A stretch of 47,228 nucleotides of DNA from an uncultured Deferribacteres bacterium (GCA_964014485.1 CAXHAT010000039.1:1-47228); one strand, 5' to 3'; shown: positions 1-29,608, numbered from the stretch's first letter. Notes: generated by a model from the sequence alone, not told the origin. Program-made: numbers and translations.

Positions 1-661
1 ACAATGCTCCGGTTGCCGCGTCGAAGCGATAAATCAAAATTTTGTCTAATCCCAAATCCGTCGCGAAAACGAATTTATTGGAAGCGTCGGCAAAAATCTG
101 GTGTGCGTGCGGCCCTTCCTGACGCTTTGGATTGACGCTCGAACCTTCGTGTTGCACAACGCTCGCCGCTTCGCCCAAAGAGCCGTCTTCCAAAATTGGA
201 AACGATGCGATTGTCCCGCTGACGTAATTTGCGACCAGCGCCCACTTGCCGGTTCGATCCAGCGAAATGTGACACGGCGCGCCGCCCTGCGATTCGATTT
301 GATTCAACAATGTCAATCCACCGTCGTTTTCATCAACCGAAAACGCGCTGACCGTGCCTGTTGGGCGGCCGTCGAATTCCAGTAATTCATTGACGGCGTA
401 GAGAAAACGCCCGTTTGGGTGAATCGCCAAAAAAGAAGGATCGGCCGCGGCGGCTTTGTTTGCAAATTTCAAATCGCCCGTTTCCGGATTGAATTTGTAC
501 GCGTAAACGCCCTCGCTGTCACCGGAAGTATACGTGCCGACGAATAGCATCATTTCATTCGATTCCCGATTTTGTGCGCAGGAAAAAAGTTGAAAACTCG
601 TCCCCGAAAACACAGCGATCAAAGCAAAGCGCCGCAGCAAAAAACGTCTTCCCGCGCCCAT
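1..661 (-). CDS. Lactonase family protein (6-phosphogluconolactonase-like beta-propeller), runs off the window's left edge
   Basis: Not in the ORF track because it has no stop inside the window. Manual translation from ATG 661 (GGAGAGG upstream): MGAGRRFLLRRFALIAVFSGTSFQLFSCAQ...MLFVGTYT...PSFLAIHPNGRFLYAVNE...GGAPCHISLD...ALVANY...RQEGPHAHQ...DLGLDKILIY, all typical Pgl motifs. Confidence 0.9.
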   Translation of the reverse strand, partial: MGAGRRFLLRRFALIAVFSGTSFQLFSCAQNRESNEMMLFVGTYTSGDSEGVYAYKFNPETGDLKFANKAAAADPSFLAIHPNGRFLYAVNELLEFDGRPTGTVSAFSVDENDGGLTLLNQIESQGGAPCHISLDRTGKWALVANYVSGTIASFPILEDGSLGEAASVVQHEGSSVNPKRQEGPHAHQIFADASNKFVFATDLGLDKILIYRFDAATGAL

Positions 662-750
662 GAATCCTCTCCGAAAAACTTGATTTTGTATTAGATTGCG
701 TTCGTGGATTGCAAGGTAGCCAATTCCCCCGGTTTTGCAATTGGAAACGA

Positions 751-2160
751 TTAAAATACTGGAGTGTTGGCGCGGTCCGGGAGCAAATAAAGAAAACAAG
801 CCGCCGGTAAGCCGACGACGCCATTGTCTTGAAAAAACTTATCTTTCGTCACTACGACGCCTTCGCCAAAGCTCCTTTTGATCGTCGTATAATCTATCGG
901 CGAGATGACCGTTTGCTGCTTGACCTCAACCGGAATCTCTCTGCCGTTCCAGAGCACAACAAAATCGACTTCCCGGTCGCGTTTCGATCGCCAGTAGAAC
1001 AGTGAATCCAAATTGGAAAATCCCTCAAATAATTGCCGCTCAGAAGTTCGCATCAGGGTTTCGCCGACGATCCCTTCAATTTTCATGGACTGCTCGAAGG
1101 CGTCGTCGCGCATGTTTGCCAACTGCGCCAAAACCCGGTACAAAATCGGATCAAAGGGGTAATATTTTCGATTCTTGTTCGGACGGGGCTGGAAGCGGCC
1201 CTTGTCAAGGAAAGGCAGAATATATAGCAAAAAAGAATCGGCGAGCATTTGGATGTATTCTTTCACCGTATTAACGGAAATCGCGCCCGCCTGTTTTGCC
1301 AAATTGTTCCAACTCACGGGAGCCGCCAAGTTGGCTATAATTCTGCGGCACAAGTTTCTCAAAATAATCCGATCCTTACGCAGTTTTTCAAAATCGGAGA
1401 TCACGACGGATCGGTAGGTTTCTATCGTTTCCGGCGAGACGGCGCCGTTTTTTATGGCGTCGGTTATCGCCGGGGGAAATCCGCCGCTGATTAAATAGCG
1501 GTCGAAATGCTTTTGTAAAACCGCTGTTGAGCGCTTCAAGGCCGGCAGTGCTTTATCGATAGATTCCCGCCAGTGGGAAAAATCCAAAGAATCGGTTATT
1601 TTAACTCCGTTCAGTTCACAAAAACGCCTGAAATTGAGGGGTAAGAGCACGCGGTCCGGACGACTGATTTTACGTCTTCCCGGTAAGCGTTCTCCGCCTT
1701 TTCGCAAGTCAATTGCCGAAGAGCCGCTCAGGATGAACAAAACTTCCGTTCCCAGTCCGAGATCGACGATATGTTTTATCGCGTACTCCCAGCGAGGTAC
1801 AAACGTAATTTCGTCGAGGAAAATGTATTTCTTGCCATTGTCGGAAATTTCCAGAAATTCTCGTACGACATTGAAGAGTTCGCGATCATTTGCAACCAAT
1901 TCCGCATTATAAAAGAGAATATTTTCCGCCGGAAAATGATCTTCCAAAAGGTCGCGGACAAGCATTTTCAAATAGGTTGTTTTACCGATTTGTCTGGAGC
2001 CGCGTAACGTCATTACGCCTGTCTGCCGCAGGTCTTTTTTTGAGATGACGCCGGGTTTGTAGTCAAACGGCGATTTTTCTGCCTGCCGAAGATGAATATC
2101 TTGAAAAATCGCCTGTTTATTATTCCACCACGGGTTTTGCAGCGCCAGTTCGTTGAGCAT
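751..2160 (-). CDS. AAA_14/DUF4143-family ATPase with a C-terminal PD-(D/E)xK-like domain
   Basis: N-terminal QNPWW, Walker A GSRQIGKTT, Walker B IFLDEI, LSGSS, YLISGGFP, and C-terminal YWRS..REVDFV...PVEVK. Confidence 0.85.
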   Translation of the reverse strand: MLNELALQNPWWNNKQAIFQDIHLRQAEKSPFDYKPGVISKKDLRQTGVMTLRGSRQIGKTTYLKMLVRDLLEDHFPAENILFYNAELVANDRELFNVVREFLEISDNGKKYIFLDEITFVPRWEYAIKHIVDLGLGTEVLFILSGSSAIDLRKGGERLPGRRKISRPDRVLLPLNFRRFCELNGVKITDSLDFSHWRESIDKALPALKRSTAVLQKHFDRYLISGGFPPAITDAIKNGAVSPETIETYRSVVISDFEKLRKDRIILRNLCRRIIANLAAPVSWNNLAKQAGAISVNTVKEYIQMLADSFLLYILPFLDKGRFQPRPNKNRKYYPFDPILYRVLAQLANMRDDAFEQSMKIEGIVGETLMRTSERQLFEGFSNLDSLFYWRSKRDREVDFVVLWNGREIPVEVKQQTVISPIDYTTIKRSFGEGVVVTKDKFFQDNGVVGLPAACFLYLLPDRANTPVF

Positions 2161-2256
2161 GTTTTGTTCTGTTGGTTGAATAAAAATGCTTCTTTTTTGT
2201 TCAGTTGACTTTTCAAAATACCAGCTTTTTGCAGAAGTTCAAGTTTTAAATCGCAA

Positions 2257-3888
2257 TCAACCATACGGGTACATGTTCTTTTTTCCAACTCCGCAAAGCC
2301 CCGCCAGATTCCATGGCGCAATATCGACGACGACGGATTCATAAAAATCGCGCAAATCCGATTTTGTTGGCTTACTCCGGGAGGTGAGTTCGAGCAATCG
2401 CTTGTAGCCGTTTTTGACTTCTGCGCGAAAATCACGATCGTGAGAAAACAAAAACTCGTCGTTCAAATCAGCAGCGCCGCTTTTATAGCGATGCTCGCTG
2501 AAAATCGAGCCGGTGTAGTAATACATCGAGAACGCGGCCAGCAAATCGAAGTTCGAGAACGCGAGATAGCTTCCGTGAATCAGCCAATCGACGAATTCAA
2601 TCTCCCGCTGCAACTGGTGATCATATTTTTCAAGCGCTTCCAAAAACTTCGGCGTTTGCCAATCGTTTTGAAAAGCGTCCGCCAGCCGTAAAACGCCCAG
2701 CAGCGTGTGCGCATTTCCGGGACTGAAAAACGGATCAAGAAAATAAGCGGCCGCAGGCAAAGCAACCCAACCGTCGCCAAAGCTTTGGGGCAATTTTCTC
2801 TCCAAGCGCCCTGTCATTGTAAATGGCCGGATCGCTTCGGATTGCGCGAATTGTTCGGCAATCGATGGATATCGCGCGAGTAAATGCGCCCATTCCTTGT
2901 TTGGATTTTCGGGGTAGGTCGGCGCATATTTTTCGCCATTTAAAACAAATCCTGCGCTGGTCACACCGTTGTTGAAACGCAAAACCCACATCCAGCCTTC
3001 ATCGAAGACATGGTGTAAAGCCGCATCGTCGGGGTGGAACGGATAATCTTCGAGAAAGGCGTTTTTTTCGCTGAGAACGTCTCGCCAAGACCGCACATTT
3101 TTAAAGTGTGAAAAGATCGTCCAGGAATTGGTCTTCATGTCATACCCGCGCTGGCGGGAGGAGCCGCTTGCAGGGGCAGGTTTTTCCTTTTTGCTCGAAA
3201 GCGCCGCTTCTGTCATACCCGCGCTGGCAGGTATCCAGCTTTGGGGCGCTGTTGTCTGGATACCCGCCTGCGCGGGTATGACGCTCAAATTTTCAGGAAA
3301 AATCTCTGAAGAAACAACCGCCGCGCCGCCGCTGGCGTCAATCAGCCACTCCGCTTCAAAGCCCAAGCTCTTGCCGTCTTTTTCGCACGACAAGCGCCAA
3401 TCGTTAGCGCATTTCTTAACTTCATGGATCGTCGTTTTATCGGAATAAAAAACGCCGGATTTGATCGCTTCCTGAGCCATAAAATGATCGAAATCAGCGC
3501 GAAACCATTGCGTATCGCCGACTTGATCGTTCGGGCTGGCGGCGACGAGCATTTCGCGGGAGTGTCGGCGGTCAGGCTGAAAAGGCAGGTTTTTTTCGTG
3601 CTTAAAAAAGGAAGAACCGCGCTTCAGACCGCAGGCAATTTGGGGATAATTCTTCTGCCATGAACCAAATTTGCACAACGGCGCGATGCGGTTGAGTCGG
3701 TAAGCTTTGCAGATTTTTTCAAGAAAAAGGTTGGCCAACGGCGTAGAAGACTCGCCGATTGAAAAGCGGGGATGGCTGCTTTTTTCAATAAGAATGGGTT
3801 GCAGCCCAATTTGCTTTAAAATCAGAGCGGTCAGGCTTCCGGCAAATCCGGCTCCGACGATGACGACGTCTCCGCGAACGACTCTCAT
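2257..3888 (-). CDS. Flavin-dependent halogenase-like oxidoreductase (tryptophan halogenase superfamily, PrnC-like)
   Basis: GAGFAG FAD motif, HPRFSIGESS, CGLKRGSSF (Lys at the halogenase catalytic position), GWMWVLRF (WxWxIP variant), FLDPFFSPG. Confidence 0.85.
   Translation of the reverse strand: MRVVRGDVVIVGAGFAGSLTALILKQIGLQPILIEKSSHPRFSIGESSTPLANLFLEKICKAYRLNRIAPLCKFGSWQKNYPQIACGLKRGSSFFKHEKNLPFQPDRRHSREMLVAASPNDQVGDTQWFRADFDHFMAQEAIKSGVFYSDKTTIHEVKKCANDWRLSCEKDGKSLGFEAEWLIDASGGAAVVSSEIFPENLSVIPAQAGIQTTAPQSWIPASAGMTEAALSSKKEKPAPASGSSRQRGYDMKTNSWTIFSHFKNVRSWRDVLSEKNAFLEDYPFHPDDAALHHVFDEGWMWVLRFNNGVTSAGFVLNGEKYAPTYPENPNKEWAHLLARYPSIAEQFAQSEAIRPFTMTGRLERKLPQSFGDGWVALPAAAYFLDPFFSPGNAHTLLGVLRLADAFQNDWQTPKFLEALEKYDHQLQREIEFVDWLIHGSYLAFSNFDLLAAFSMYYYTGSIFSEHRYKSGAADLNDEFLFSHDRDFRAEVKNGYKRLLELTSRSKPTKSDLRDFYESVVVDIAPWNLAGLCGVGKKNMYPYG
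3139..3282. repeat. Palindromic repeat element (REP/RPE-like) lying in frame inside the halogenase gene
   Basis: GTCATACCCGCGCTGGCAGGTATCCAG (3212-3238) and CTGGATACCCGCCTGCGCGGGTATGAC (3256-3282) are inverted copies (25/27). A third partial copy sits at 3139-3158. Confidence 0.85.
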
Positions 3889-3931
3889 CGCCGAACATCG
3901 CCCCTAAGCCAGAAGTCAGTCGGCAGACAAA

Positions 3932-4017
3932 CTGAAGCTTGAACTACAAACGACAGTGCTTCCTCAAAGCTCAGAGCAGGAGGAAATACTGTCGTTTGTA
4001 GTTCAGCCTTCAGGCTG
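3932..4017. repeat. GTAG-type REP doublet forming a long hairpin
   Basis: CTGAAGCTTGAACTACAAACGACAGT (3932-3957) pairs with ACTGTCGTTTGTAGTTCAGCCTTCAG (3988-4013), 24/26. It contains GTAG followed by the short palindrome CAGCCTTCAGGCTG. Confidence 0.8.
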
Positions 4018-4078
4018 CTTTTGCATCGTGGTTTTTCGAAAGAATTCGGCCCCAAGTCAAATCCGCTCAAAATCGTAA

Positions 4079-5032
4079 TCAACGACGCGAACATTCGCAC
4101 GGCACGCGCGGCAGGACGACTTGCGCCATGTTCATTTTGTAAAGCCGTTGTTTTCGATCTTCCAGACAAAGGTCGCACTTTGAAAATTGTTCCAAATCCC
4201 ACAAATCCGCAAACACTCGCCCTGATTTTTTCTCGATGCCGTAATCAAAAACTTCTTCCAACGATGCGAGCGTCGGCGGCTTGAAAAGTCCTTGCTTCCA
4301 AAGCGCGTCCAGTGCGCCGTTTCCTGCACGCGTTGGGATGACGGCGCAACATTCCACGCCGACGTCGAAAGCAAAATCGATGGTTTTTTTCGCCCATTCC
4401 ACGCCTTCGTCTTCATCGAGAAAAGGCGGACGCAACAAGACAAACGCACGAACCGCAATGCCGTGGCGCACGAGAAAACGCGTCGCTTTTTGATAATCGG
4501 ACATTGTCATCCGTTTGTTGAGCCGCCCCAGAACGCCGGGATGAACGGTTTCCAAACCCATCGCGACTTCGAGCCGCCCGCCGAGTTTTTTGGCGAAATC
4601 AACGCACTTTCCGCTTACGAGTTTTGGATGGTTTTCGATGACGACATTGTCAAAGCCGCGTACGAGATCGGCGATTTTGGGCAAGTCTTCCGGCGGGATG
4701 GCCTTGCTGTCGAAAAAGTTGCCGCTGTTGTAGAGCTTGATCTGCTTTGCGCGATCAGGCAACTCTTGCAGCGCCCACTCAATCTGCGCCGGAATCGCGC
4801 CGGACGGCACGGTTTCGTCCGTTGTGTTTTTCCAAAGATCGCACATCAGGCAGCGAAACGGGCATTCGCGATTGGTCAGAAAAATCGTCGCCGTCTCAAC
4901 GATGTCGCCGGTGTGCGTGCGTTCTTTTTCCAAAAGAAATTCATAGGGCCGGAATGGATCAACATCGTTTTTGGGCGGCCGCTGCTCGACCACCCACGGA
5001 TCGTTGATCTCAAAGAAGCTCGTCTCGTTCAT
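4079..5032 (-). CDS. Radical SAM protein, RaSEA/TIGR01210-like (Elp3 superfamily)
   Basis: CxxxCxxC (CPFRCLMC), IKLYNSGNFFD, IENHP, EVAMGLET, AFVLLRPPFL, and extra C-terminal Cys (CDLC...CEC). The start overlaps the upstream gene by 23 nt. Confidence 0.85.
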   Translation of the reverse strand: MNETSFFEINDPWVVEQRPPKNDVDPFRPYEFLLEKERTHTGDIVETATIFLTNRECPFRCLMCDLWKNTTDETVPSGAIPAQIEWALQELPDRAKQIKLYNSGNFFDSKAIPPEDLPKIADLVRGFDNVVIENHPKLVSGKCVDFAKKLGGRLEVAMGLETVHPGVLGRLNKRMTMSDYQKATRFLVRHGIAVRAFVLLRPPFLDEDEGVEWAKKTIDFAFDVGVECCAVIPTRAGNGALDALWKQGLFKPPTLASLEEVFDYGIEKKSGRVFADLWDLEQFSKCDLCLEDRKQRLYKMNMAQVVLPRVPCECSRR

Positions 5033-6353
5033 AAAGCTTGTTGAAGAACCTCCGGTACGTCAGCGCTTTTTCGGGAAATGTTTTTTGCAGCTCCTCCGGG
5101 TCAACGACCCCGTGCTGGAATCGGCGCTTGGGGAAAATCGGCATGTCCATGTTCGTCACAGCCTTGACGCCTTGCGCAACAACCTCGCCCTTCAATTGAT
5201 AGAGCCGGTCATGATCCCAGTCCGTCATCGCAATGTAGGGAATCGCCTCCGCAATTTCGATGACGTTCGGCAGGGTGTAGGGGCTGAATCCCTCGAAATT
5301 AAACATAGCCGCAGGCGCGAACGTTCGCGTATAGGCGCGGCTCAGGCCGCCGGAGTAAGTGAGCGAATGTTTGATCGATTCTACGCCCCAGCCTTCCTGG
5401 TAGAGCATGAGATTGTTGAGCACGCTGCGGATGGTCAGCTCCGGGTTTTCTTCAATCGGGTAATCTTTCAAATTTTCATCGCCGCCGTCGCCGTCGAGCA
5501 TGAATTTCCATTCCGGGTAGCGCTCGCGGATGGCTCTGAGCAGGGCCAGATTCATTGTGGCGGACTCGATGTCCAGCGGTTTGTAGTCCTCAACGATTTT
5601 GATCGTTTCCCGCCAATCGACGGCTTCTTTCGGCACTTCAATCGGTTCCAGAAACATGCCGAGATTGACGCGCTCCAGAAATTCGCGCGCTTGCGCCAAA
5701 TCGGCGCCGCGTCCTTCCACCGAGAGCGTGAAGGCTTTCAATCGTGACGGTTTCATGCCCAATTCGAGCATGGCGTGATAGGTCAAAAGAAAGACCGAGC
5801 CGCTGTCAATGCCTCCGGAAAAGCTCACGCCAATCGGGCCCTCTGGCGCACGATGCGTCAGCCATTTTTTGATTTCGTTATACAGCGCCGTCATGTAGCG
5901 TACGCCGATCATCGAAACGTCGTCGGTCAAGGACGAACGTTCCGGCGTAAAAAAGCGTTTGTGAACCGGGTTCGGATCAGGACAGCCAAGCAATGCAAGC
6001 TCGGTCACGTAGTGCGCCGGGGCCATGCGCGTATAGGACGGATGAAACTGATCGTCGAGCCCTTCTTTTTTGAGCCATTCGTGAATCGTATCGATGCGTT
6101 CGGCGATCACCAGGCAGGGTCCGTCGATCAGCTTGGCGATAAAATAACGCAGCGGCCGCCCGAGGGAACGCGCCATGCGCACGGTTTTACCGTCAACCGC
6201 AACCAGCGCAAACTGCCCGTCAATTTTGCGAACATCGTCCGCCGAACCGTTTTTGACCAATTCAGTCGCTTCGGTTTCGGACATGTTGTAAATCACGTTC
6301 CGTCCCGGCTGCATCAAGTTCACAACCCGCTCAATGTATTGGTGGTTTTGCAT
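5010..6353 (-). CDS. Asparagine-synthetase-related ATP pyrophosphatase (no N-terminal glutaminase Cys)
   Basis: PP-loop SFSGGIDS and LDGDGGDENL (compare SGEGADE). The N-domain is a remnant (IDGQFALV...MARSLGRPLRY) and begins MQNH, not MC. Confidence 0.85.
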   Translation of the reverse strand: MQNHQYIERVVNLMQPGRNVIYNMSETEATELVKNGSADDVRKIDGQFALVAVDGKTVRMARSLGRPLRYFIAKLIDGPCLVIAERIDTIHEWLKKEGLDDQFHPSYTRMAPAHYVTELALLGCPDPNPVHKRFFTPERSSLTDDVSMIGVRYMTALYNEIKKWLTHRAPEGPIGVSFSGGIDSGSVFLLTYHAMLELGMKPSRLKAFTLSVEGRGADLAQAREFLERVNLGMFLEPIEVPKEAVDWRETIKIVEDYKPLDIESATMNLALLRAIRERYPEWKFMLDGDGGDENLKDYPIEENPELTIRSVLNNLMLYQEGWGVESIKHSLTYSGGLSRAYTRTFAPAAMFNFEGFSPYTLPNVIEIAEAIPYIAMTDWDHDRLYQLKGEVVAQGVKAVTNMDMPIFPKRRFQHGVVDPEELQKTFPEKALTYRRFFNKLYERDELL

Positions 6354-6417
6354 TTCTTAGCCTCTCATTCTTACAATTTCTATCTCGATTTCCGACGGTG
6401 AACCATTTTTGTTTTGA

Positions 6418-6510
6418 ACTGGATTTACCGAATCAACCGGATTGACTGACAGCACAATTTCAGTTCGATCTTTTTTAAACGAGCGATCCAGTCGATCCTG
6501 TTATCCCGTC
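6418..6510. repeat. Inverted array of degenerate 9-nt repeats
   Basis: ACTGGATTT-ACCGAATCA-ACCGGATTG (6418-6444) faces ATCCAGTCG-ATCCTGTT-ATCCCGTC (6486-6510). Confidence 0.55.
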
Positions 6511-6832
6511 GAAAAAATGATTCTCCATTCGCCGCTCAACGATGCAGCGGCGACCAATCGAAAGAAATATAAAATTGCGGATTGTTCAATGCTATTGAAT
6601 CGAAACGGCAGTTCACGTTAAATTCGGCAATGCAATGAAAGAGTTTAGACCAATGATTATTGTTGGCTGAAAAGTCTTTACATCGCAGCGAGTATTTGCA
6701 TATTTCATCGATTTTCACTTGGCAGAAGAGTTTAGAATAAATGGAATAGACAAATCTGAAGCAATGTTTGTGAATTTCCGTGGAGAAATTTCAGGGCGTA
6801 AACAATAATAGAAAACGACGAGATTTCAAAAT

Positions 6833-8212
6833 ATGGATAATTACGATTTATGCGTCATCGGGGCCGGGTCTGGCGGGCTGGTGGCGGCGACGACGGGCAA
6901 TCGGCTGGGCTTGAAAACGGTTTTGGTTGAGAAAAACAAGATCGGCGGGGAATGTACGCATTCCGGCTGCGTGCCCAGCAAAGCGTTTATCCAAAGCGCG
7001 AAATTGTTTTACGGGACGCAGTCTTTTGAAAAATACGGTTTGCCTGAGCCTCGCATCACCGATCAACTTGATTTTGCACGCGTGATGGAACATGTTGATG
7101 GTGTTATTCAAGGTGTTTATCAGCATGAAACGCCGGAAATTTTTGAGAACATGGGCATTGACGTCATCGTCGACTCGGCGGGGGCGGAATTTCAGAACAA
7201 AAAAACGATTCGCGTCGGCGACCGTGTTTTCAGGGCGGAGAATACGATTATTTGCACGGGATCATCGCCGCGAAGTTTGGAATTTGAAGGGAGCGCCGAT
7301 CTTGAGTTTTTGAACAACGAAAACTTTTGGGCATTGCGAAAAATACCGCGCTCAATCACTTTCGTGGGCGGCGGAGTAATTTCCGCCGAATTGGGGCAGG
7401 CAATGCGTCGCTTTGGCGCTGAAGTCAATATTATTGAACACAACCCGCGTATTTTAAAAGTAGTTGACGATGATGTCGCTGATGAAGCAATCCAGATTTT
7501 TCGCAGAGAAGGCGTTAGACTTTTTCACAATGCGAACATCGGTTCTTGTCTGCGTATCGACGACCAAACGATACGCATTTCACTGGATACGCCGGACGGG
7601 AAGGAAACGCTCGAAACCGAGGCGGTTTTCCTTGCGATTGGCAGGCAGCCAAACATCGGCGGGCTCGGACTGAAGAACGCAGGGGTTGCATTTAGCCAAC
7701 ACGGGATTGAAACAAATCAATTTTTGCAGACGACGGCTGAAAATGTTTATGCCTGCGGCGATGCCGCGAGTCCGGCAAAATTTACCCATGCCGCTTCGTA
7801 CCAGGCTGAGATTTGCGTGCAAAATATTCTTAAAAAAGGTTCGCGGAAAAACGATCTTTCCATTTTTCCCTGGGCGATTTTTACCGACCCGGAAATTGCG
7901 CATGTCGGCCTGAGCGAGAAGGCGGCGCGCAAACAGAATGGCGATGTCGAGGTGCTGCGCGTCAATGCAACCCTCGACCGTTTCACGACGGACGGCAAAA
8001 CCGAAGGCTTCCTCAAAATCGTACTGGGCAAAAACGATCAAATTCTCGGCGCGGACGCAATTGGCGCACACAGCGGCGAATGGATTCAGCTTTTGACCAT
8101 GGCTATGAAAAACCGCACGCCGATCAAACAATTCGCCGAAACGATTTTTGCCTACCCGACTTATTCTGAAATCGTTAAAAAAGCGTTTGTGCGCTACTTT
8201 AGAACGAAGTGA
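6833..8212 (+). CDS. Class I pyridine nucleotide-disulfide oxidoreductase (mercuric-reductase-like / Lpd family)
   Basis: GAGSGG, GGECTHSGCVPSK redox disulfide, VGGGVISAE, YACGD, and C-terminal YPTYSE. It has no C-terminal CC pair. Confidence 0.9.
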   Translation: MDNYDLCVIGAGSGGLVAATTGNRLGLKTVLVEKNKIGGECTHSGCVPSKAFIQSAKLFYGTQSFEKYGLPEPRITDQLDFARVMEHVDGVIQGVYQHETPEIFENMGIDVIVDSAGAEFQNKKTIRVGDRVFRAENTIICTGSSPRSLEFEGSADLEFLNNENFWALRKIPRSITFVGGGVISAELGQAMRRFGAEVNIIEHNPRILKVVDDDVADEAIQIFRREGVRLFHNANIGSCLRIDDQTIRISLDTPDGKETLETEAVFLAIGRQPNIGGLGLKNAGVAFSQHGIETNQFLQTTAENVYACGDAASPAKFTHAASYQAEICVQNILKKGSRKNDLSIFPWAIFTDPEIAHVGLSEKAARKQNGDVEVLRVNATLDRFTTDGKTEGFLKIVLGKNDQILGADAIGAHSGEWIQLLTMAMKNRTPIKQFAETIFAYPTYSEIVKKAFVRYFRTK

Positions 8213-8910
8213 AGCTTTCTATCATCATTCCGGCGTTGAACGAAGCGTCAGCCATTGAAAAAACGCTCTCCCAGCTTCACTCACTCCGGAATGAGGCCGA
8301 GTTCGAAATTATCGTTAGCGACGGCGGAAGCTGCGACAAAACCGTGGAGCTGGCTCGGCGTTATTCAGCCGTTGTGCAGGGAGAGAAAGGACGGGGGGCG
8401 CAACTCAATCTTGGGGCGCGGCACGCTTCAGGGCGCGTCTTTTTTTTCGTCCACGCCGATATGGTTGTGCCCAAAGGCGCACTTATGGAGATTATGCAAA
8501 AAATCGAAATCGAAGGCTTCGACGGCGGCGGATTCTCGAACGTTTTTTCAACGCACAATCGAAAAATCAAGCGCTTGGGCCGGATAATGAACCTGCGTTT
8601 TTTGAACAATGATCACGCGGGAAACCTTACTTTTTTCGGCGACAACGGCATTTTTGTTAGGCGCGAAGCTTTCGAATCGCTGGGCGGTTTCAAGCAGATT
8701 CCGATTATGGAAGATTATGATTTCTCCAAACGTATGCGAGATCGGTTTCGCGTCGTTCGCATAGAAAACCCAAAGCTTATCGTTTCACCGAGGCGACACA
8801 TTGAGGCCGGTTTTTTCCAAACGCGGTTTCAGTGGATGGCGATTAAACGGCTCTATCAGCTCGGCGTCTCGCCGAATTTTTTGGCAAAGTTGTACAAGGA
8901 AGTGCGATAA
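8209..8910 (+). CDS. GT2 glycosyltransferase, TIGR04283-like
   Basis: SIIIPALNE, DGGSCD, GRGAQLNLGA, FVHAD, FGDNGIFVRR, PIMEDYDF, SPRR. Its GTG start overlaps the upstream TGA (GTGA). Confidence 0.9.
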   Translation: MKLSIIIPALNEASAIEKTLSQLHSLRNEAEFEIIVSDGGSCDKTVELARRYSAVVQGEKGRGAQLNLGARHASGRVFFFVHADMVVPKGALMEIMQKIEIEGFDGGGFSNVFSTHNRKIKRLGRIMNLRFLNNDHAGNLTFFGDNGIFVRREAFESLGGFKQIPIMEDYDFSKRMRDRFRVVRIENPKLIVSPRRHIEAGFFQTRFQWMAIKRLYQLGVSPNFLAKLYKEVR

Positions 8911-8963
8911 GACGATTCTTTGGGGAGAGGCTTGTGAAAAAAAAGAGGTTCAAGGGCGTCGCA

Positions 8964-10253
8964 TCAAAAAGGCAGGCCTTTGAGTTTGGGCTGGCCAAGC
9001 GTTCCAGTTATTGGGAAAAAAATCGCGTCATTTTCTCGCGGCAATTTGTTACCGCTGAGACTTTCATACATTTTAATAGCGCCCTTCAGAGTCCCGGTGA
9101 GCTGACTCAGCGCCAGCTTGCCTTGCGTGATCTGCGATGCGGCCAGGACTTCATCATCCACCCTCGCGATGGCATTCAATCGCGCAGTAAAAAACTTCAG
9201 CGCCAGCGTCGTGTTTTCCAAAGTCATCCGCTCGCCCTCGCGACGATATTCGATATCGGCGGATTGTACGGGTATTTCGTCGCTGTTCAGCCGCAGAATT
9301 GTGAGCAGCATTTGCTGTTTCATTCTGTCGCGGACATGCCCGGGCAGCATGATGCGTAAATTTTCCAACTTCGCGGACAGCTCGCCTTCCGGCAAACCGC
9401 CAATTCTCCCGGACTTATTGAAGCGCCGGGAAAGTTTTCCTTGAATGGTCCCGCTCTCGGCATAGTAGCTTCCGCCCCCATGGGGAGGCGTCAAAGTCAC
9501 GCCCGGTTCCGCAAAAACGGCGTTAAAACTGTCCGACAGTCGTTGGCGTTGGTAGGTTACCGGCGACGATCCGCGGTACTCTATTTCTCCCGCATAATCA
9601 AAAGTCATATGCTCGCTTTCGGCATGAATCGCGCGCATTTCAATCTTGTTTTCCGCAGGGTTCCAAATAATCTCGCCCGACGCCGTTTTCGCTTCCGACA
9701 CGGCCTGTACAACGGCAAACACCCATTTTGCGGCCTGCGGGCTTGATGCGTCGTTAACCGAAATATTTTGGGCCTTGAGTTTCAGCGTTTGCTTTTTCTG
9801 CGGGAAATCGGCGTCAAGACCGACATTTTCCTGTGTCAGCATACCATCAAAATCAAGCGTCAGATGCTCCGCGAGGTAATGCTGCGGCAAAAATGAAAGA
9901 CCAAGGTCAAGACTGTCGCAATCGAGCTTGAGGGAACTGAGCCGCCAGGTTTGCGCGGCGGCGTCATATGCAAATAAATCCCCGTAGGCAAGACTGCCGT
10001 GCAGTGACTTTGCACGAACTTTGGAAGCATCGAATTTGTTGATGACCGACAAACCTTCAACGAGAATTTGCGCCAGCAGCGGATTGACTGAGAGCTTGTC
10101 GTAGGAAATTTCGTAACCGGAATCGCGCAAGGCCGGCGACGATTTGAGTTGTTCGTCAATTCTGTCTGCGATCACAGAACCGGCGATGCTGTTGCCCAGG
10201 ACAACGGCGACGCCAAGACCGAAAAAAATGAAAAGTATGGTTCGCAGTTTCAT
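8964..10253 (-). CDS. Hypothetical membrane-anchored protein, possibly AsmA/GspN-like beta-rich
   Basis: 429-aa ORF with an N-terminal hydrophobic anchor and C-terminal PITGTLGQP. ATGA overlap with the upstream gene. Confidence 0.7.
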   Translation of the reverse strand: MKLRTILFIFFGLGVAVVLGNSIAGSVIADRIDEQLKSSPALRDSGYEISYDKLSVNPLLAQILVEGLSVINKFDASKVRAKSLHGSLAYGDLFAYDAAAQTWRLSSLKLDCDSLDLGLSFLPQHYLAEHLTLDFDGMLTQENVGLDADFPQKKQTLKLKAQNISVNDASSPQAAKWVFAVVQAVSEAKTASGEIIWNPAENKIEMRAIHAESEHMTFDYAGEIEYRGSSPVTYQRQRLSDSFNAVFAEPGVTLTPPHGGGSYYAESGTIQGKLSRRFNKSGRIGGLPEGELSAKLENLRIMLPGHVRDRMKQQMLLTILRLNSDEIPVQSADIEYRREGERMTLENTTLALKFFTARLNAIARVDDEVLAASQITQGKLALSQLTGTLKGAIKMYESLSGNKLPRENDAIFFPITGTLGQPKLKGLPF

Positions 10254-10951
10254 TTTTTGACGATGAGATGAGGAATGTTGTCAAGATTCCAATCGAGCAC
10301 AAGGCCTTGCGCAGTGCGTTTCGCGCTTTCGTAAGAATAGAGTTTTTCCACCAGATAAAGTGCTGGTTCGTAACTCAGGGCGCCGCCGACTGAGGTGATG
10401 AACTTGCCGTCAACCACCAAATTCACGTCATGACGAACGTCCACTTTGGGGAACATCTCCTTGAGTTTATCCCGGTCGGAAGGAAAAGTTGTGGCGATCT
10501 TTCCGTCAAGCGCGCCTGTTGCAGCCAGGGGAAAAGCGCCGTCGCAAACGGTTATGACGTACTTGGCTTTTTCAACCGCTTCTTTCACCCACCCCATGTA
10601 TTTTTCGTCTTCGAGATCAGAAGACATGCTGTTACCGGTGCTCGGAATAATCAAAATGTCGAATTCCGGCGCATCGTCAAAAGAATAGTGCGGCGAAACG
10701 GTGATCCCTTCAAAAGTTGTGAACGGCTTGCCGTCGTGATTGACGACAAAACAGCGCACATAGCTCGTGCTGTCACGAAAATACGTGTGTTGCAAAATAT
10801 CGTACGGCGCCATAAGCTCGGAATTATAAACCGTCTCCGCCGCCAGAAACGCCGCGTTGAGAATCTTGTTTTCATTTTTTTGCGCGTTTACATTGCAACC
10901 GAAAAATGCAACGCCTAGAATCACGAGCGATTGTCTACAAACTCTTTTCAT
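10250..10951 (-). CDS. DJ-1/PfpI family protein with a signal peptide
   Basis: APYDIL, FDILIIP, ITVCDGAFPLA (nucleophilic Cys), VVDGKFITSVG. Hydrophobic N-terminus followed by GC. Confidence 0.9.
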   Translation of the reverse strand: MKRVCRQSLVILGVAFFGCNVNAQKNENKILNAAFLAAETVYNSELMAPYDILQHTYFRDSTSYVRCFVVNHDGKPFTTFEGITVSPHYSFDDAPEFDILIIPSTGNSMSSDLEDEKYMGWVKEAVEKAKYVITVCDGAFPLAATGALDGKIATTFPSDRDKLKEMFPKVDVRHDVNLVVDGKFITSVGGALSYEPALYLVEKLYSYESAKRTAQGLVLDWNLDNIPHLIVKK

Positions 10952-11014
10952 ACTACCGTTTGTCCTGAATAAACCATTAGGATTGTAAGCAGTAAACTGA
11001 ATACCGCTTACAGT

Positions 11015-11758
11015 TTACTCATCACTACTCCCGGCCCGCTGTCTTGCCATTTCATAGAAAAAAGCCGCCGCTGCGGTCGAAACGTTCAAAGAATCTATTT
11101 TACCTAGCATGGGCAGACTGACGAGCACGTCGCATTTGCCGCGAATAAATGAACTCATGCCCTTTCCTTCCTTGCCAAAAACAAAAGCGACCGGTCGATT
11201 CAAGTCAACGTCCCACGGCTTGTCATCCTGCCCGGAATCCGTGCCAACAATGACGAAACCATTCTTTTTCAAACGATCAATCGCCCTGGCAATGCTGGCA
11301 ACTTCCGTGACCGGCACATGGAACGCCGCACCCGCGCTTGTCTTGATCGCCCCGGGCGTAAGGCTGGCGCTTCGTCGTGTCGGAATCAAAACAGAATCAA
11401 CGCCAGCGCCGTCCGCGACGCGCAGAATCGCGCCGAGATTGCGCGGGTCTTCTATGCCGTCGAGCAAGGCCAACGCCGGATTTTTGACGTCTTCCAGGCT
11501 CGCCAAAAGGGCGTCAATATCTTTGGTCGGCAGTGGGCGCATAAACGCGCACACGCCCTGGCTGTTTTGATCCGCCATGCGCTGAAAATGTTCGCGCCGG
11601 ATCTTGCGCAGCGAAACGCGGTTCTTACGCGCCAGCGCCTCGATCTTTTCAATGATGCGCCCCTCAGAACCAGCGGCTATGAAAACTTCCTTTAACGGCA
11701 GCTTTGCTTCCAGAGCTTCGATGACCGGACGACGGCCGGTGATTTTTATGTCAGGCAT
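11015..11758 (-). CDS. rlmB: 23S rRNA (guanosine-2251-2'-O)-methyltransferase
   Basis: Start reassigned to ATG 11758 (MPDIKITGRRPVIEAL). Motifs SQGV, LDGIEDPRNLGAILR, FGKEGKG, SLNVSTA. Confidence 0.93.
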   Translation of the reverse strand: MPDIKITGRRPVIEALEAKLPLKEVFIAAGSEGRIIEKIEALARKNRVSLRKIRREHFQRMADQNSQGVCAFMRPLPTKDIDALLASLEDVKNPALALLDGIEDPRNLGAILRVADGAGVDSVLIPTRRSASLTPGAIKTSAGAAFHVPVTEVASIARAIDRLKKNGFVIVGTDSGQDDKPWDVDLNRPVAFVFGKEGKGMSSFIRGKCDVLVSLPMLGKIDSLNVSTAAAAFFYEMARQRAGSSDE

Positions 11759-11765
11759 AATTGTA

Positions 11766-12155
11766 CTAATTTGGCCAGGAAAAATGTTCACTCTTTTTTG
11801 AATGCCGCCCCCGTGCAGCAATAAACAGGTGTGAAACGCGAATGATCTTGTCAAGCCGTTTTGCTTGCGTGTTGAACGTTGGGTGTTTTAAAAAACGCCT
11901 TATGAAAGTCGCGGCTTCATATTGGCCGACATCAAGAAAGGCCAGGCAATAACGAGCGTGGCAATATTTAAGTCTGTCAAAATCGGAGTCAAGGCTGAAG
12001 AAGGTCAAGCGAGGCAGTTTCAATAACTCGGGAATAATCTCATCATCTTTCAATCCCTTGCGGCCAATCTCATAACCTATCTGACGAACGCGAATTCGCC
12101 AGCTTTTTAGCAATTGTCGCTGACTTTCCGGAAAGTTTTCATCCAAGACAATCAT
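11766..12155 (-). CDS. PIN-like (DUF5615-type) putative toxin
   Basis: MIVLDENFP...GLKDDEII...FFSLDSDF. ATGA overlap with the DUF433 gene. Confidence 0.75.
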   Translation of the reverse strand: MIVLDENFPESQRQLLKSWRIRVRQIGYEIGRKGLKDDEIIPELLKLPRLTFFSLDSDFDRLKYCHARYCLAFLDVGQYEAATFIRRFLKHPTFNTQAKRLDKIIRVSHLFIAARGRHSKKSEHFSWPN

Positions 12156-24454: not shown

Positions 24455-25846
24455 ATGATCCAAAAAACAATATCTCCCGTCGACGGCTCGGTTTACATCG
24501 AACGAAAGTTGGCTTCTGAAAAGGAAATCGAAATTGCTTTGGAAAAGGCTGTTTCCGCTCAGAGAAAATGGAAACGGACACCGCTGGCCGAACGCGCCGA
24601 TTTCTGCACAAAAATGGTCGACGCCTTTGTCGCAAAAGTCGATGAGCTAGCGCCGGAATTGAGCTGGCAGATGGGTCGCCCAATCCGTTACGCGCCATTC
24701 GAAATCAGCGGCGGTTTTGCTGAGCGTGCGCGACACATGGTTTCCATCGCGGAGGAATCGTTGGCGGATGTTGCCGTTCAACCGAAAGAAGGATTCGCTC
24801 GCTTCATTCGGCGCAAGCCTTTGGGCGTAGTCTTTACGGTGGCGCCGTGGAATTATCCCTACCTCACTTCGGTTAACTCGATTATTCCCGCGCTAATGGC
24901 CGGCAATGTTGTTATTCTCAAACACTCCGCGCAGACGCCGCTTTGTGCGGAGCGCTATGAAGAAGCTTTCAAGGCCGCGGATTTGCCGGCGGGTGTTTTT
25001 CAGATTTTGCATATGTCTCACAGCGATGTTGCGCGCGTCATCGGCGACGAGCGTATCGATTTCGTCGCGTTCACCGGTTCGGTCGAGGGCGGGCGAGCTG
25101 TTCAAAAAGCTGCAAGCGAAAGGTTTATAGGGACGGGGCTGGAGCTGGGCGGGAAGGATCCGGCGTATGTACGTGAAGACGCGAACCTAGAGCACGCGAT
25201 TGAAAGTCTGGTTGACGGCGCGTTTTTTAATTCCGGGCAATCGTGTTGCGGAATTGAACGCATTTATGTACATCAAGCCATATTCGACGATTTTATTGGA
25301 GGCGCAGTCGAACTGACGCGCAAATATATTCTGGGAAATCCGCTCGATGAAGCAACCACGCTCGGCCCAATGGTGCGCACGAGTGCGGCGAATTTCGTCC
25401 GCAAACAAATTTCCGAAGCTGTTTCTCGAGGCGCAAAAGCGCTGATTGATGCGGCGGCGTTTCCCGCGAACAAAGACGGTACGCCTTATCTTGCGCCGCA
25501 AATTCTCGTCGATGTTGATCATTCCATGAGCGTCATGCGCGAAGAAAGTTTTGGGCCGGTCGTCGGCGTTATGAAAGTTGAAAATGATGGCGAAGCGATC
25601 CGCTTGATGAACGACAGCGCCTACGGTCTCACCGCCGCCGTGTGGACAAGCGATCTTGACGCGGCGATACGCATCGGCGAGCAAATTGAGACTGGAACCT
25701 GGTTTATGAATCGATGCGATTATCTCGATCCGGCGCTAGCGTGGACAGGCGTAAAGGATTCGGGAAAGGGTTGCTCGCTCTCAGCATTGGGTTACGAATC
25801 GCTGACGCAGCCCAAATCGTTTCATTGCAGATTAAAGTTTGAATAG
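24455..25846 (+). CDS. Aldehyde dehydrogenase
   Basis: Start reassigned to ATG 24455. PWNYP, FTGS, LELGGKDP, NSGQSCC, EESFGP, YGLTAAVW. Confidence 0.95.
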   Translation: MIQKTISPVDGSVYIERKLASEKEIEIALEKAVSAQRKWKRTPLAERADFCTKMVDAFVAKVDELAPELSWQMGRPIRYAPFEISGGFAERARHMVSIAEESLADVAVQPKEGFARFIRRKPLGVVFTVAPWNYPYLTSVNSIIPALMAGNVVILKHSAQTPLCAERYEEAFKAADLPAGVFQILHMSHSDVARVIGDERIDFVAFTGSVEGGRAVQKAASERFIGTGLELGGKDPAYVREDANLEHAIESLVDGAFFNSGQSCCGIERIYVHQAIFDDFIGGAVELTRKYILGNPLDEATTLGPMVRTSAANFVRKQISEAVSRGAKALIDAAAFPANKDGTPYLAPQILVDVDHSMSVMREESFGPVVGVMKVENDGEAIRLMNDSAYGLTAAVWTSDLDAAIRIGEQIETGTWFMNRCDYLDPALAWTGVKDSGKGCSLSALGYESLTQPKSFHCRLKFE

Positions 25847-25880
25847 AACCCAAATATTAATTCTATCGGAGGATGATTTC

Positions 25881-26351
25881 ATGGATTGGTTGATGCAACC
25901 GTGGCCCTGGTATGTCTCCGGGGCATTGATCGGCTTGATGGTTCCGCTTCTTTACTGGTTGTCTGGAAAAGAATTCGGCATGTCGCGCAGTTTTCATCAT
26001 TTAAACTCCGCTTGCTCTCCAAATTCAAAACTGTCTTATCTCAAAGAAAATAATTGGAAGGACGAATCCTGGAGCCTTATTCTCGTCGCAGGCGTGGCAT
26101 TGGGCGCTTTCATAGCAGCGCAATTTATGTCCGCTGAACCGACGAAGTTTTTGCCGGACGCTTACTATAGCTCGACAGGCGGCTTGAAATTACTGGTCGG
26201 CGGCATTCTGATCGGTTTTGGAACGCGTTACGCGCGCGGCTGCACCTCCGGACACACGATTCGCGGGCTCTCCAATTTGAGCGTCACAAGCCTGATTGCG
26301 ACCATAAGTTTTTTCGCCGGCGGTTTAATATCAATTTTCGTGATCGGTTAA
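25881..26351 (+). CDS. YeeE/YedE-family sulfur-compound transporter, subunit 1
   Basis: GGAGG SD then MDWLMQPWPWYVSG, SAC, and LIGFGTRYARGCTSGH. Confidence 0.9.
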   Translation: MDWLMQPWPWYVSGALIGLMVPLLYWLSGKEFGMSRSFHHLNSACSPNSKLSYLKENNWKDESWSLILVAGVALGAFIAAQFMSAEPTKFLPDAYYSSTGGLKLLVGGILIGFGTRYARGCTSGHTIRGLSNLSVTSLIATISFFAGGLISIFVIG

Positions 26352-26369
26352 GGCGGAGGGCATTAAGAA

Positions 26370-26801
26370 ATGAAAAAATTGAGCATTTTGTTAATAGGCA
26401 TGTTCTTCGGCGTCGTTCTCGTGAAATCGGAAGTTATTTCGTGGTTTCGCATTCAGAAGATGTTTCGCTTTGAAGAAGCGCACATGTACTTGATTATTAC
26501 CGCCGCTATAGTGGTCGGCGCCATTTCCGTAGCGCTGCTCAAAAGATTCAGACCGCATACCATTGACGGTGAGGAAATTCAGTTCTCGAAAAACAACCTG
26601 GATAAAGGCACGGTCATCGGCGGCGTGATGTTTGGTTTAGGTTGGGCGATCACCGGCGCTTGCCCCGGCCCGATCTACGCCCAAATCGGCAGCGGCGAAT
26701 ACCTGGCGCTCATTACGTTCGCAGGGGCGTTTATCGGCGCATATTTTTACGCCGTTTTTCATTCACTGGTGCTTGTCAGGCGTAAAGAAAAGGTCGCGTA
26801 G
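26370..26801 (+). CDS. YeeE/YedE-family sulfur-compound transporter, subunit 2
   Basis: KSEVISWFRIQKMFRF..HMY and GGVMFGLGWAITGACPGP. Confidence 0.9.
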   Translation: MKKLSILLIGMFFGVVLVKSEVISWFRIQKMFRFEEAHMYLIITAAIVVGAISVALLKRFRPHTIDGEEIQFSKNNLDKGTVIGGVMFGLGWAITGACPGPIYAQIGSGEYLALITFAGAFIGAYFYAVFHSLVLVRRKEKVA

Positions 26802-26890
26802 AGAGATGCGGCGCGCCCATTCAACAGAGAAAGCCGACAAAGGCCTGGCGGCGGTTTCTTTCTCGGTTTAAATGCATTTTTTCGTTTACA

Positions 26891-28042
26891 ATGAATAAAA
26901 ACGAATTCGACCTTGAAGCTGTCGTTCAAGGAAACACAACGTTTGCACTAGCGCTGTATCGAAGTCTCCAGCGTCTTAAGGGAAATTTCGTGTTCTCTCC
27001 TCACGGCATTTCGTCCGCGCTTGCCATGACTTTTGCCGGAGCCGAGGGCGAAACCGCTCGCCAAATGGCGCGAGTTTTACATTTTTCTTTGAAACAAAAT
27101 CGCCTCCACGCCGCCTTTTCCGCCGTTCAGCAAGAGATTTCAGACTCATCCCAGAGCGGCGAAACGGTTCTTAAAACCGCCAATGCCTTACGTTTTCAAA
27201 AAGGTCTTACCCTCGGCAAAAAATTTCGTTCTTTAATACAAAAACGCTACGCAGCTTCTTTCGCTTCGCTTGATTTCCGCTCATCAGAAGCCGCGCGTCA
27301 GGAAATCAATGCGTGGGTCAAACAGGCAACACAAGACAAAATCAAAGACCTGATCCCGGAAGGCGCAATCGATGCTCGCACTCGCCTTGTCTTGCTCAAC
27401 GCCATTTATTTTAAGGGAAATTGGGCGACGCCGTTTAAAGAAGAACTGACGCAACCAAAGACTTTCCACCTTTCGACGAATGAGCAGATGCAAACGCCAA
27501 TGATGACTCAGGAAAACACTTTTTATTACGTGGAAAACGATTTGGCCCAGATTCTCGCACTCCCGTACGCCGATTCTGAATTAATGATGGTCATTCTTCT
27601 CCCTCTCCAAATCGACGGTTTGGAAAAGCTCGAAAATGCAATGTCTCTGGGAAATCTTGAAGATTGGATGAGCAGAATGCGAGAAACGGAAGTTAACGTT
27701 TCATTACCTCGATTCAAACTCAACCGCATGATCGACTTAAAGGCGGTTTTGACGGCGATGGGCATGGTTGACGCTTTCGGCGATCAAGCGAATTTCTCTG
27801 GCTTGACGGAAAACAAAAACGATCTTTACATTTCGTCTATTTTTCACAAAACCATGCTCGAAGTCAACGAACAGGGCGCGGAAGCCGCCGCCGGAGCAGG
27901 CGTTGTCGTCAAAGCAAGAAGCATGTTTGCGCCGCCCGTTTTTTGCGCTGACCATCCGTTCATTTTCTTCATTTGCGAGAACACAACGGGAAGCTTGCTA
28001 TTTCTTGGCCGCGTCATGAACCCCGCCGGGGAAATTGGTTAG
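26891..28042 (+). CDS. Serpin (serine protease inhibitor) without a signal peptide
   Basis: FALALY, NFVFSPHGISSAL, INAWV..T.DKI, LLNAIYFKGNW, hinge/RCL EVNEQGAEAAAGAG, FCADHPFIFFI, LFLGRV.NP. Confidence 0.95.
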   Translation: MNKNEFDLEAVVQGNTTFALALYRSLQRLKGNFVFSPHGISSALAMTFAGAEGETARQMARVLHFSLKQNRLHAAFSAVQQEISDSSQSGETVLKTANALRFQKGLTLGKKFRSLIQKRYAASFASLDFRSSEAARQEINAWVKQATQDKIKDLIPEGAIDARTRLVLLNAIYFKGNWATPFKEELTQPKTFHLSTNEQMQTPMMTQENTFYYVENDLAQILALPYADSELMMVILLPLQIDGLEKLENAMSLGNLEDWMSRMRETEVNVSLPRFKLNRMIDLKAVLTAMGMVDAFGDQANFSGLTENKNDLYISSIFHKTMLEVNEQGAEAAAGAGVVVKARSMFAPPVFCADHPFIFFICENTTGSLLFLGRVMNPAGEIG

Positions 28043-28046
28043 CAAA

Positions 28047-29375: not shown

Positions 29376-29608
29376 TCGGCGTTGACCTTGCCCGGTTCCC
29401 AAAAGAAACGCGCCTTTTGTTAAGAAATCCTGTCGTCGCTTGACGAAAAATGTTAGGTTTTGAAGAGCAAAAGTTTAAACCTTCATGACTTGACGCCTTT
29501 TGTTCAGCCTCCCGAAGCCGGGATATTCTCGACGGCAAAAAAAGCGTCAAGCAATGAATTCAAACTCGTCGTAAGCTGAAGAACCAAAACATTTATTGAG
29601 GCAAGCTC

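Follow-up and report, generated by a model that had tools for sequence, protein, structure and literature searches.

What do a glutaminase-less asparagine synthetase-like ligase, a small radical S-adenosylmethionine (SAM) enzyme and a halogenase-like flavoprotein accomplish together when their genes lie side by side in a bacterial genome? The question is raised by a 47,228-nucleotide contig of an uncultured Deferribacteres bacterium (GCA_964014485.1, CAXHAT010000039.1:1-47228; "the window" denotes this whole stretch), in which a first reading of the DNA (the original prediction) had singled out these three genes as a candidate pathway that ligates an amine, radically cleaves or rearranges it and then halogenates. 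We find that the trio is one unit kept in many bacterial phyla, and we put at about 0.5 the probability that it forms one functional module, most likely making or tailoring an unknown small molecule. As the original prediction had held, no function is assigned to this gene combination in the openly accessible literature that was searched. The window itself adds one more instance of the trio, with a halogenase gene into which a repeat has been inserted in frame.

The evidence that the genes belong together comes from their neighbourhoods in other organisms. A scan of one genome per species yielded at least 579 stretches encoding relatives of the radical SAM enzyme (at least 599 pattern matches), of which the best 80 were analyzed; as labelled, these comprise 38 Planctomycetota, 32 Bacteroidota, 4 Rhodothermota, 3 Gemmatimonadota, 1 Acidobacteriota and 2 unlabelled loci. 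A further 80 loci were taken from a metagenome scan seeded with distant relatives. By tblastn, the ligase was found at 68/80 genome loci and 61/80 metagenome loci, and the halogenase at 33/80 and 50/80, respectively. Adjacency was scored at loci with enough flank, requiring the ligase no more than 2 kb upstream on the same strand and the halogenase no more than 600 bp downstream. Of the loci scored, 62 of 71 from genomes and 46 of 48 from metagenomes had the ligase directly upstream, 28 of 64 and 38 of 50 had the halogenase downstream, and, where both flanks were testable, 24 of 60 and 27 of 37 had the full trio. Hence, the expectation that the trio would recur across phyla was borne out, with order and strand kept in most of the 160 loci and in at least five named phyla. 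Even the most distant locus sampled (L082), with a radical SAM protein only 41% identical to that of the window, carries all three genes. Five further genes of the window, tested likewise, turned up at no more than one of the 80 genome loci each.

This distribution bears directly on the possibility that the adjacency is fortuitous and that the genes serve unrelated processes. The only point in its favour is the repeat-bearing 190-bp gap that separates the third gene from the second. It is contradicted both by the conserved order and strand and by the two core genes sharing the same genomes, which makes it hardly credible. In a sample of 151 genomes from the window's phylum (presence at E <= 1e-40; two flagged unpublished genomes, G087 and G144, both without the pair, are included in the tallies), the radical SAM gene occurs in 11 and the ligase gene in 12, all 11 falling within the 12, and in each of the 11 both genes sit side by side on a single contig. 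Because only 11 to 12 of the 151 genomes carry the pair, the module is accessory and patchy in the phylum. Conservation of its proteins is nonetheless unusually high, the ligase sharing 57 to 72% identity with 30 homologues from several phyla (mean column identity, 72%). All three genes can be taken as real, since each has thousands of conserved relatives.

The halogenase is an optional member. By phylum label it accompanies the radical SAM gene in 24/38 Planctomycetota, 4/4 Rhodothermota and 3/3 Gemmatimonadota loci and in 1/32 of the Bacteroidota, and its presence or absence requires eight state changes on a quick tree of 63 ligases, in which the ligase of the window is sister to the Bacteroidota clade (Shimodaira-Hasegawa-like approximate likelihood ratio test support, 95). 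The ligase and the radical SAM enzyme are joined in one chain in P0395 (784 aa), the C-terminal half of which is 40% identical to the whole radical SAM protein of the window. This would be consistent with a physical complex of the two enzymes. Among the long ligase forms only P0395 looks like a true fusion, and as a single sequence it could itself be a frameshift or a gene-call read-through. The other candidates were rejected: the N-terminal half of P0391 and P0392 looks like spurious translation (judged from P0391), P0393 reads through into a neighbouring gene with its own signal peptide, and P0396 is a halogenase with a partial ligase match.

What, then, might the ligase do? Its translation contains the expected motifs (SFSGGIDSGS in the PP-loop and LDGDGGDENL) and begins with MQNHQY, with no Cys after the Met, as had been claimed. 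The N-terminal domain, at about 140 aa, is shorter than in the AsnB-type enzymes compared. The protein matches Pfam Asn_synthase with 47.1 bits (cut-off, 21). With 43.3 bits against a cut-off of 267.1 and no glutaminase Cys nucleophile, it falls outside TIGR01536, the glutamine-hydrolysing asparagine synthetase B family. At the level of fold, the PP-loop SGGxDS and the two-domain AsnB architecture place it in the asparagine synthetase B superfamily. At E <= 1e-100 the ligase has matches in at least 7,994 protein clusters (90% identity). The only name that databases offer for it is "asparagine synthase (glutamine-hydrolysing)", and an Atlas search gave only generically named asparagine synthetase clusters; judged from the sequence of the ligase, the qualifier "glutamine-hydrolysing" is contradicted.

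An AlphaFold2 model of the ligase (predicted local distance difference test [pLDDT], 85.3; predicted template modelling score [pTM], 0.88) was compared with solved structures by Foldseek. Beta-lactam synthetase (1mc1) was the top match (E = 2.6e-14), followed by human ASNS (6.3e-14), CarA, TsnB9 and E. coli AsnB; the E values for beta-lactam synthetase, ASNS, CarA and AsnB span 2.6e-14 to 3.0e-11 at about 17% identity in the structural alignments. At the level of sequence, the ATP-binding half alone aligns with solved chains (profile E of about 1e-3), and a single-sequence search against solved structures returned nothing at E <= 1. The fold match raises the possibility that the ligase closes a lactam within one substrate, as do beta-lactam and carbapenam synthetases, and that the radical SAM enzyme rearranges or tailors the ring with no amide dealkylation. 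Like the trio ligase, beta-lactam synthetase and CarA are without a working glutaminase. However, human ASNS scores nearly equally, the sequence similarity is limited to the ATP-binding half, and no beta-lactam-type partner genes were seen among the 63 and 12 neighbours scanned. We consider this route unlikely.

The second gene encodes a radical SAM enzyme in which the predicted motifs are all present, namely CPFRCLMC (C57, C61 and C64), KLYNSGNFFD and EVAMGLET, together with the extra C-terminal cysteines at positions 286, 289, 312 and 314. The three cysteines of the CxxxCxxC motif, which RaSEA shares, are invariant in 20/20 sequences, and those of the C terminus are invariant or nearly so among 20 homologues. 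Searches with the protein gave 373 matching clusters (50% identity) at E <= 1e-30. Its description as RaSEA-like was upheld: TIGR01210 is its best model with 110.3 bits, compared with 24.7 bits for the MnmL/YtqA/YhcC model TIGR01212 (cut-off, 180), whereas the curated cut-off of TIGR01210, 212.15 bits, is not reached. The match covers profile positions 5 to 250 of 313. The gene is the sole TIGR01210-like one in its genome, which contains no match over the cut-off. In a Foldseek search with the AlphaFold2 model (pLDDT, 93.9), the top ten matches are all Elp3 radical SAM domains (E values of 4.3e-08 to 1.1e-06). The placement of the enzyme in the RaSEA/MnmL/Elp3 clan would thus follow from hidden Markov model scores and fold matches. 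In view of the score below the curated cut-off and the different partner, we regard it as RaSEA-like, not as RaSEA.

Both characterized relatives are instructive. RaSEA converts preQ0-lysine to archaeosine (G+) in a complex with the ligase-like partner ArcS, which attaches the lysine (passages of PMC11298593). MnmL/YhcC removes the carboxymethyl group of cmnm5s2U to give nm5s2U, according to parts of a preprint (bioRxiv 10.64898/2026.05.18.725915). Both enzymes break a C-N bond and leave the nitrogen beside it on the product. The translational coupling of a glutaminase-less AsnB-fold ligase to such a relative suggests a scheme in which an amine is ligated and then loses its carbon chain. From these families we infer the following chemistry. 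On the strength of its fold and PP-loop, the AsnB-like enzyme would adenylate a carboxylate and join it to an amine other than ammonia derived from glutamine, yielding an N-substituted amide or a lactam. Asparagine synthetase-like (AS-like) enzymes are described as activating carboxylates to form amides, lactams or nitriles (passages of PMC13060819). By analogy with its two characterized relatives, the radical SAM enzyme would then abstract a hydrogen next to that nitrogen and cut the C-N bond, so that the nitrogen would remain with the product, perhaps in the form of a primary amide, and glutamine would not be needed to supply the amide nitrogen. At loci that include the third gene, this one among them, the PltM-type flavoenzyme would halogenate an electron-rich ring of that product.

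The same family resemblance could be read differently, in that the pair would modify a nucleic acid base in an archaeosine-like or xnm5U-like modification of tRNA or DNA. Both RaSEA and MnmL act on tRNA, and the nearest solved folds of the second protein are the radical SAM domains of Elp3. PP-loop enzymes often act on nucleosides, which we also count in favour. The option of a nucleoside modification, left open by the original prediction, nevertheless finds no support beyond this resemblance. The distribution in the phylum is patchy, Pfam and NCBIfam models revealed no tRNA-binding domain in the trio, the linked genes encode a halogenase of the free-substrate type and exported proteins, and positions 1 to 12000 of the window contain no Rfam family. 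A nucleic acid target is, in our estimation, highly improbable.

The third gene carries the halogenase motifs noted at the outset: GAGFAG, FLDPFFSPG and a Lys in GLKRG that aligns with the CGIKLG of PltM. This Lys, which we take to be the catalytic Lys of halogenases, is kept in 34/34 sequences (33 homologues and the window). The protein scores 54.1 bits with Trp_halogenase (cut-off, 21), and its closest solved relatives are PltM (E = 1.4e-51, 179 bits) and then tetracycline 7-halogenase (4.4e-33), both of which act on free phenolic substrates. With GxGxxG, the conserved Lys and the Trp_halogenase match, it would group with flavin-dependent halogenases of the PltM/CtcP type. Weak NCBIfam matches to the protein-modifying enzymes QhpG, GoxB and LodB (45.9 to 65.1 bits) all lie far under their cut-offs. 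At the position of WxWxIP, presumably a further halogenase motif, the protein of the window reads WMWVLR; both Trp residues of WxWx(L/I)(R/P) are kept in 32 of the 34 sequences, and IP is replaced by LR in most.

Genes beyond the trio offer some indication of where its product may act. Clustering of open reading frames (ORFs) across the loci revealed one further recurrent family, that of exported FG-GAP/UnbV_ASPIC (CRTAC1-like) propellers, often accompanied by tetratricopeptide repeat proteins, a link that the original prediction, made from the window alone, could not have revealed. The propeller genes occur at 31/80 genome loci (26 of them Bacteroidota) and at 20/80 metagenome loci, 17 of which also carry the halogenase. 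The product of the module probably acts outside the cytoplasm, together with these propellers. In line with this, the phylum sample contains a relative (E <= 1e-70) of a module-adjacent 552-aa propeller in 11/12 ligase-positive and 11/139 other genomes (10/137 without G087 and G144). The propeller N termini are Sec-type signal peptides, lipoprotein signals or membrane anchors, with a twin-arginine motif (loosely defined) in 6/80 and a lipobox in 13/80. Hydrazine synthase alpha subunit (HZS_alpha)-like genes are found at 8/80 genome loci, and genes for haem-propellers and substrate-binding proteins also flank a subset. In the phylum sample, the HZS_alpha domain is present in 9 of the 12 ligase-positive genomes and in 24 of the other 139 (22/137 without G087 and G144), groups that were set after the neighbourhoods were known; none is on the contig of the window.

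A chorismatase-like gene (FkbO/Hyg5 N-terminal domain plus Rid domain) heads an extended Bacteroidales cluster that includes the pair (L015:59-1234 and G154:C8:52539-53684), and its presence in these two extended clusters would fit an aromatic acid as the substrate. It lies within the flank at only 2/80 loci, heading the cluster at L015 and lying just outside L062 itself, and elsewhere in three of four further genomes checked; a search of the window's genome with the L015 query did not find it. At eight metagenome loci, including L096:9477-10337 and L101:4562-5440, there is a gene for a membrane protein (about 290 aa) that weakly resembles RnfD/NqrB (about 33 bits). All eight also carry the halogenase and an FG-GAP/UnbV_ASPIC gene, and in L096 it lies between those two. 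It may be a fourth member of the module in its lineage.

The recurrent propeller genes also feature in another explanation, namely that the module modifies a protein or peptide, either the exported propellers before their Sec-dependent export or an unlinked precursor in the manner of ribosomally synthesized and posttranslationally modified peptides (RiPPs). AS-like enzymes that amidate, cyclise or nitrilate peptides are on record (lasso cyclases, TsrC, ScdTA and PesC, in the sections of PMC13060819 covered). The weak QhpG, GoxB and LodB matches of the flavoprotein point in the same direction, as would P0261, an 896-aa protein that reads as a radical SAM domain joined to FG-GAP/UnbV_ASPIC. P0261 is a single sequence that could reflect a frameshift or a gene-call read-through of the kind that P0391 and P0393 seem to represent. 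Moreover, the similarity of the flavoprotein to PltM (179 bits) is far above its QhpG-type matches, the propeller C termini are not conserved to a fixed end, and in the genome of the window the trio has no propeller neighbour. No conserved small ORF (18 to 90 aa) was found within 900 bp of the module at genome loci L002 to L081, the recurring ones being shadows of neighbouring genes; this search for a RiPP precursor gene covered the adjacent DNA, and a precursor could be encoded elsewhere. We think modification of a protein or peptide improbable.

Several points weigh against the small-molecule module that we prefer, or against parts of it. The order "ligate, cleave, halogenate", every chemical step in it, the substrate and the extracytoplasmic role are all inferred. 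The radical SAM enzyme stays below the RaSEA cut-off, its last 45 or so residues lie outside the TIGR01210 match, and the last 60 or so positions of the model are unmatched. The third protein could be a monooxygenase, since WxWxIP reads WxWxLR in most members, and the repeat insertion described below may impair the copy in the window. The genomes of the phylum sample are kin and not independent of each other. As to the propellers, no more than nine candidates per genome were scored in the tally of relatives of the 552-aa protein, and orthologues of this protein with at least 50% identity are found in only 4 of the 12 positive genomes. At the family level the link is not discriminating: UnbV_ASPIC, at the Pfam level, was rejected as a co-occurrence marker, being nearly universal in the phylum (139/151 genomes, or 137/149 without the two flagged ones). 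The genome of the window alone contains 30 matches to this domain, none on the window's contig. Indeed, no recurrent partner is found on that contig, and the trio stands alone in its genome. Finally, a cofactor that is loaded into the exported partners in the cytoplasm is unlikely, because the N termini of these partners are of the Sec type, lipoprotein signals or membrane anchors.

The coordinates of the locus are collected in Table 1.

Table 1. Features of the trio locus, in window coordinates (aa, amino acids; ORF, open reading frame)
Feature	Coordinates	Strand	Basis
AsnB-like PP-loop ligase without N-terminal Cys nucleophile, shortened N-terminal domain	5010..6353	-	447 aa ORF
Radical SAM enzyme of the RaSEA/MnmL/Elp3 clan, CxxxCxxC and four conserved C-terminal Cys	4079..5032	-	317 aa ORF
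PltM-type flavin-dependent halogenase-like protein	2257..3888	-	543 aa ORF
Intergenic gap, 190 bp, with dispersed palindromic repeat (hairpin 3932-4013)	3889..4078	.	Inverted repeat
Second palindromic repeat family, in frame within the halogenase gene	3139..3282	.	Inverted repeats I2, I3
Divergent intergenic region, 479 bp, upstream of the ligase gene, presumed promoter region	6354..6832	.	Sequence reading

The three genes are co-directional on the minus strand, in the order ligase, radical SAM enzyme and halogenase, and the first two overlap by 23 nt (5010-5032), both as predicted. They are probably transcribed together. No terminator-like site was found on the minus strand inside the gap between the second and third genes. 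The upstream region holds a single sigma-70-like match (6829-6802, minus strand), which does not exceed chance (4 matches against 3.0 expected). The gap does contain the repetitive extragenic palindromic (REP) hairpin that had been described as largely filling it, although with 82 of 190 bp covered "largely" was generous. Its 34-nt arms (3932-3965 and 3980-4013) are 88% complementary, and the family to which it belongs is dispersed over many contigs of the source genome (8.4 Mb in 465 contigs), with 80 matches when both strands are counted.

A separate repeat family, with 79 matches in the genome, has entered the halogenase gene itself. Its arms, located by an inverted-repeat search, lie at 3212-3238 and 3256-3282, with a third arm copy at 3139-3158, and the insertion adds about 50 residues (IPAQAGIQ...IPASAGMT...) to a loop at about residues 196 to 250. 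It is missing from 32 of 33 homologues, the remaining one (L023) having an unrelated insertion in the same loop. It resembles the Rickettsia repeat elements that are sited inside coding sequences. The stretch is found whole or in part in three DNA runs of one marine metagenome study; no RNA sequencing run containing it is listed.

The remainder of the window contains little that bears on the trio. The absence of nonribosomal peptide synthetase, polyketide synthase or carrier protein genes beside it, pointed out earlier, held within the window in Pfam and NCBIfam scans, and anti-phage defence models of PADLOC-DB matched none of the three trio proteins (0 families for each). Downstream of the trio, an AAA_14/DUF4143 ATPase gene (751-2160, minus strand) matches the PADLOC candidate defence family PDC-S01 (5e-37) and occurs beside the module at 1/80 loci. 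On the other side, a pyridine-nucleotide-disulphide oxidoreductase gene (6833-8212, plus strand) overlaps by 4 nt a glycosyltransferase gene (8209-8910, plus strand), the product of which passes TIGR04283, "arsenosugar biosynthesis glycosyltransferase" (192.3 against 182 bits); both are beside the module at 0/80 loci. Farther away, a plus-strand row (25839-31027) comprises two adjacent YeeE/YedE-like sulphur-transport half genes (25839-26351 and 26370-26801), a bacterial serpin (26891-28042), a HEAT-repeat protein and a metallo-beta-lactamase-rhodanese fusion (29609-31027).

Taken further, the ligase-radical SAM pair might be a general nitrogen-transfer machine, in which an amino acid is attached as nitrogen donor and its carbon skeleton is radically cut, so that the logic of ArcS-RaSEA would have moved from archaeal tRNA to bacterial small molecules. 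The product might be a phenolic amide, halogenated in some cases, that the exported CRTAC1-like propellers and hydrazine synthase-like haem proteins would use as a diffusible ligand, mediator or substrate. We offer this extension tentatively and with considerable doubt. Regardless, the module is widespread, and an answer would give a large, misannotated ligase family its function and would test radical C-N cleavage after ligation as a general route of nitrogen delivery. It would also provide a first handle on the bacterial CRTAC1-like and hydrazine synthase-like proteins that travel with the module. Cultured carriers, including Roseithermus sacchariphilus MEBiC09517 (L034) and Maioricimonas sp. 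JC845 (L076), make it testable.

How does the module compare with systems that are already known? It is reminiscent of the ArcS-RaSEA system of Euryarchaeota, in which a nitrogen-attaching enzyme likewise has a small radical SAM partner from this clan, TIGR01210 being the best model here, and in which, according to passages of the describing paper, the amine donor lysine is attached and afterwards stripped of its carbon chain (PMC11298593). However, the conserved upstream partner in the trio is an AsnB-fold PP-loop ligase and not the ArcTGT-like ArcS. The radical SAM enzyme itself differs from RaSEA in its score (110.3 against 212.15 bits), in the Cys-rich C-terminal tail outside the match and in its bacterial, patchy occurrence, and nothing points to tRNA. 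MnmL/YtqA/YhcC (TIGR01212) belongs to the same radical SAM clan and, as far as the preprint passages cited above go, performs a radical C-N cleavage, but it scores far lower (24.7 bits against a cut-off of 180) and acts alone on tRNA without a ligase partner.

Among the AS-like enzymes, beta-lactam and carbapenam synthetases, TsrC, ScdTA and PesC share the two-domain AsnB fold and the PP-loop with the trio ligase, from which they are set apart by an identity of about 17% in structural alignments, by the shorter N-terminal domain of the latter (about 140 aa) and by its family's constant pairing with a radical SAM enzyme. PltM, a phloroglucinol halogenase, and tetracycline 7-halogenase have GxGxxG, the aligned Lys and F.DP.FS.G in common with the third protein, which in turn has WxWxLR for WxWxIP, a context without polyketide genes and, in the window, the repeat-derived insertion. 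Lastly, FG-GAP/CRTAC1 genes have been reported beside hydrazine synthase homologues (passages of Genome Biol Evol 2025, PMC12758564). These clusters resemble the subset of our loci in which HZS_alpha-like, haem-propeller, FG-GAP/CRTAC1 and substrate-binding-protein genes flank the pair. In contrast, the terms "radical SAM" and "asparagine synth" have 0 occurrences in the searched passages of that paper, and the contig of the window is without HZS_alpha.

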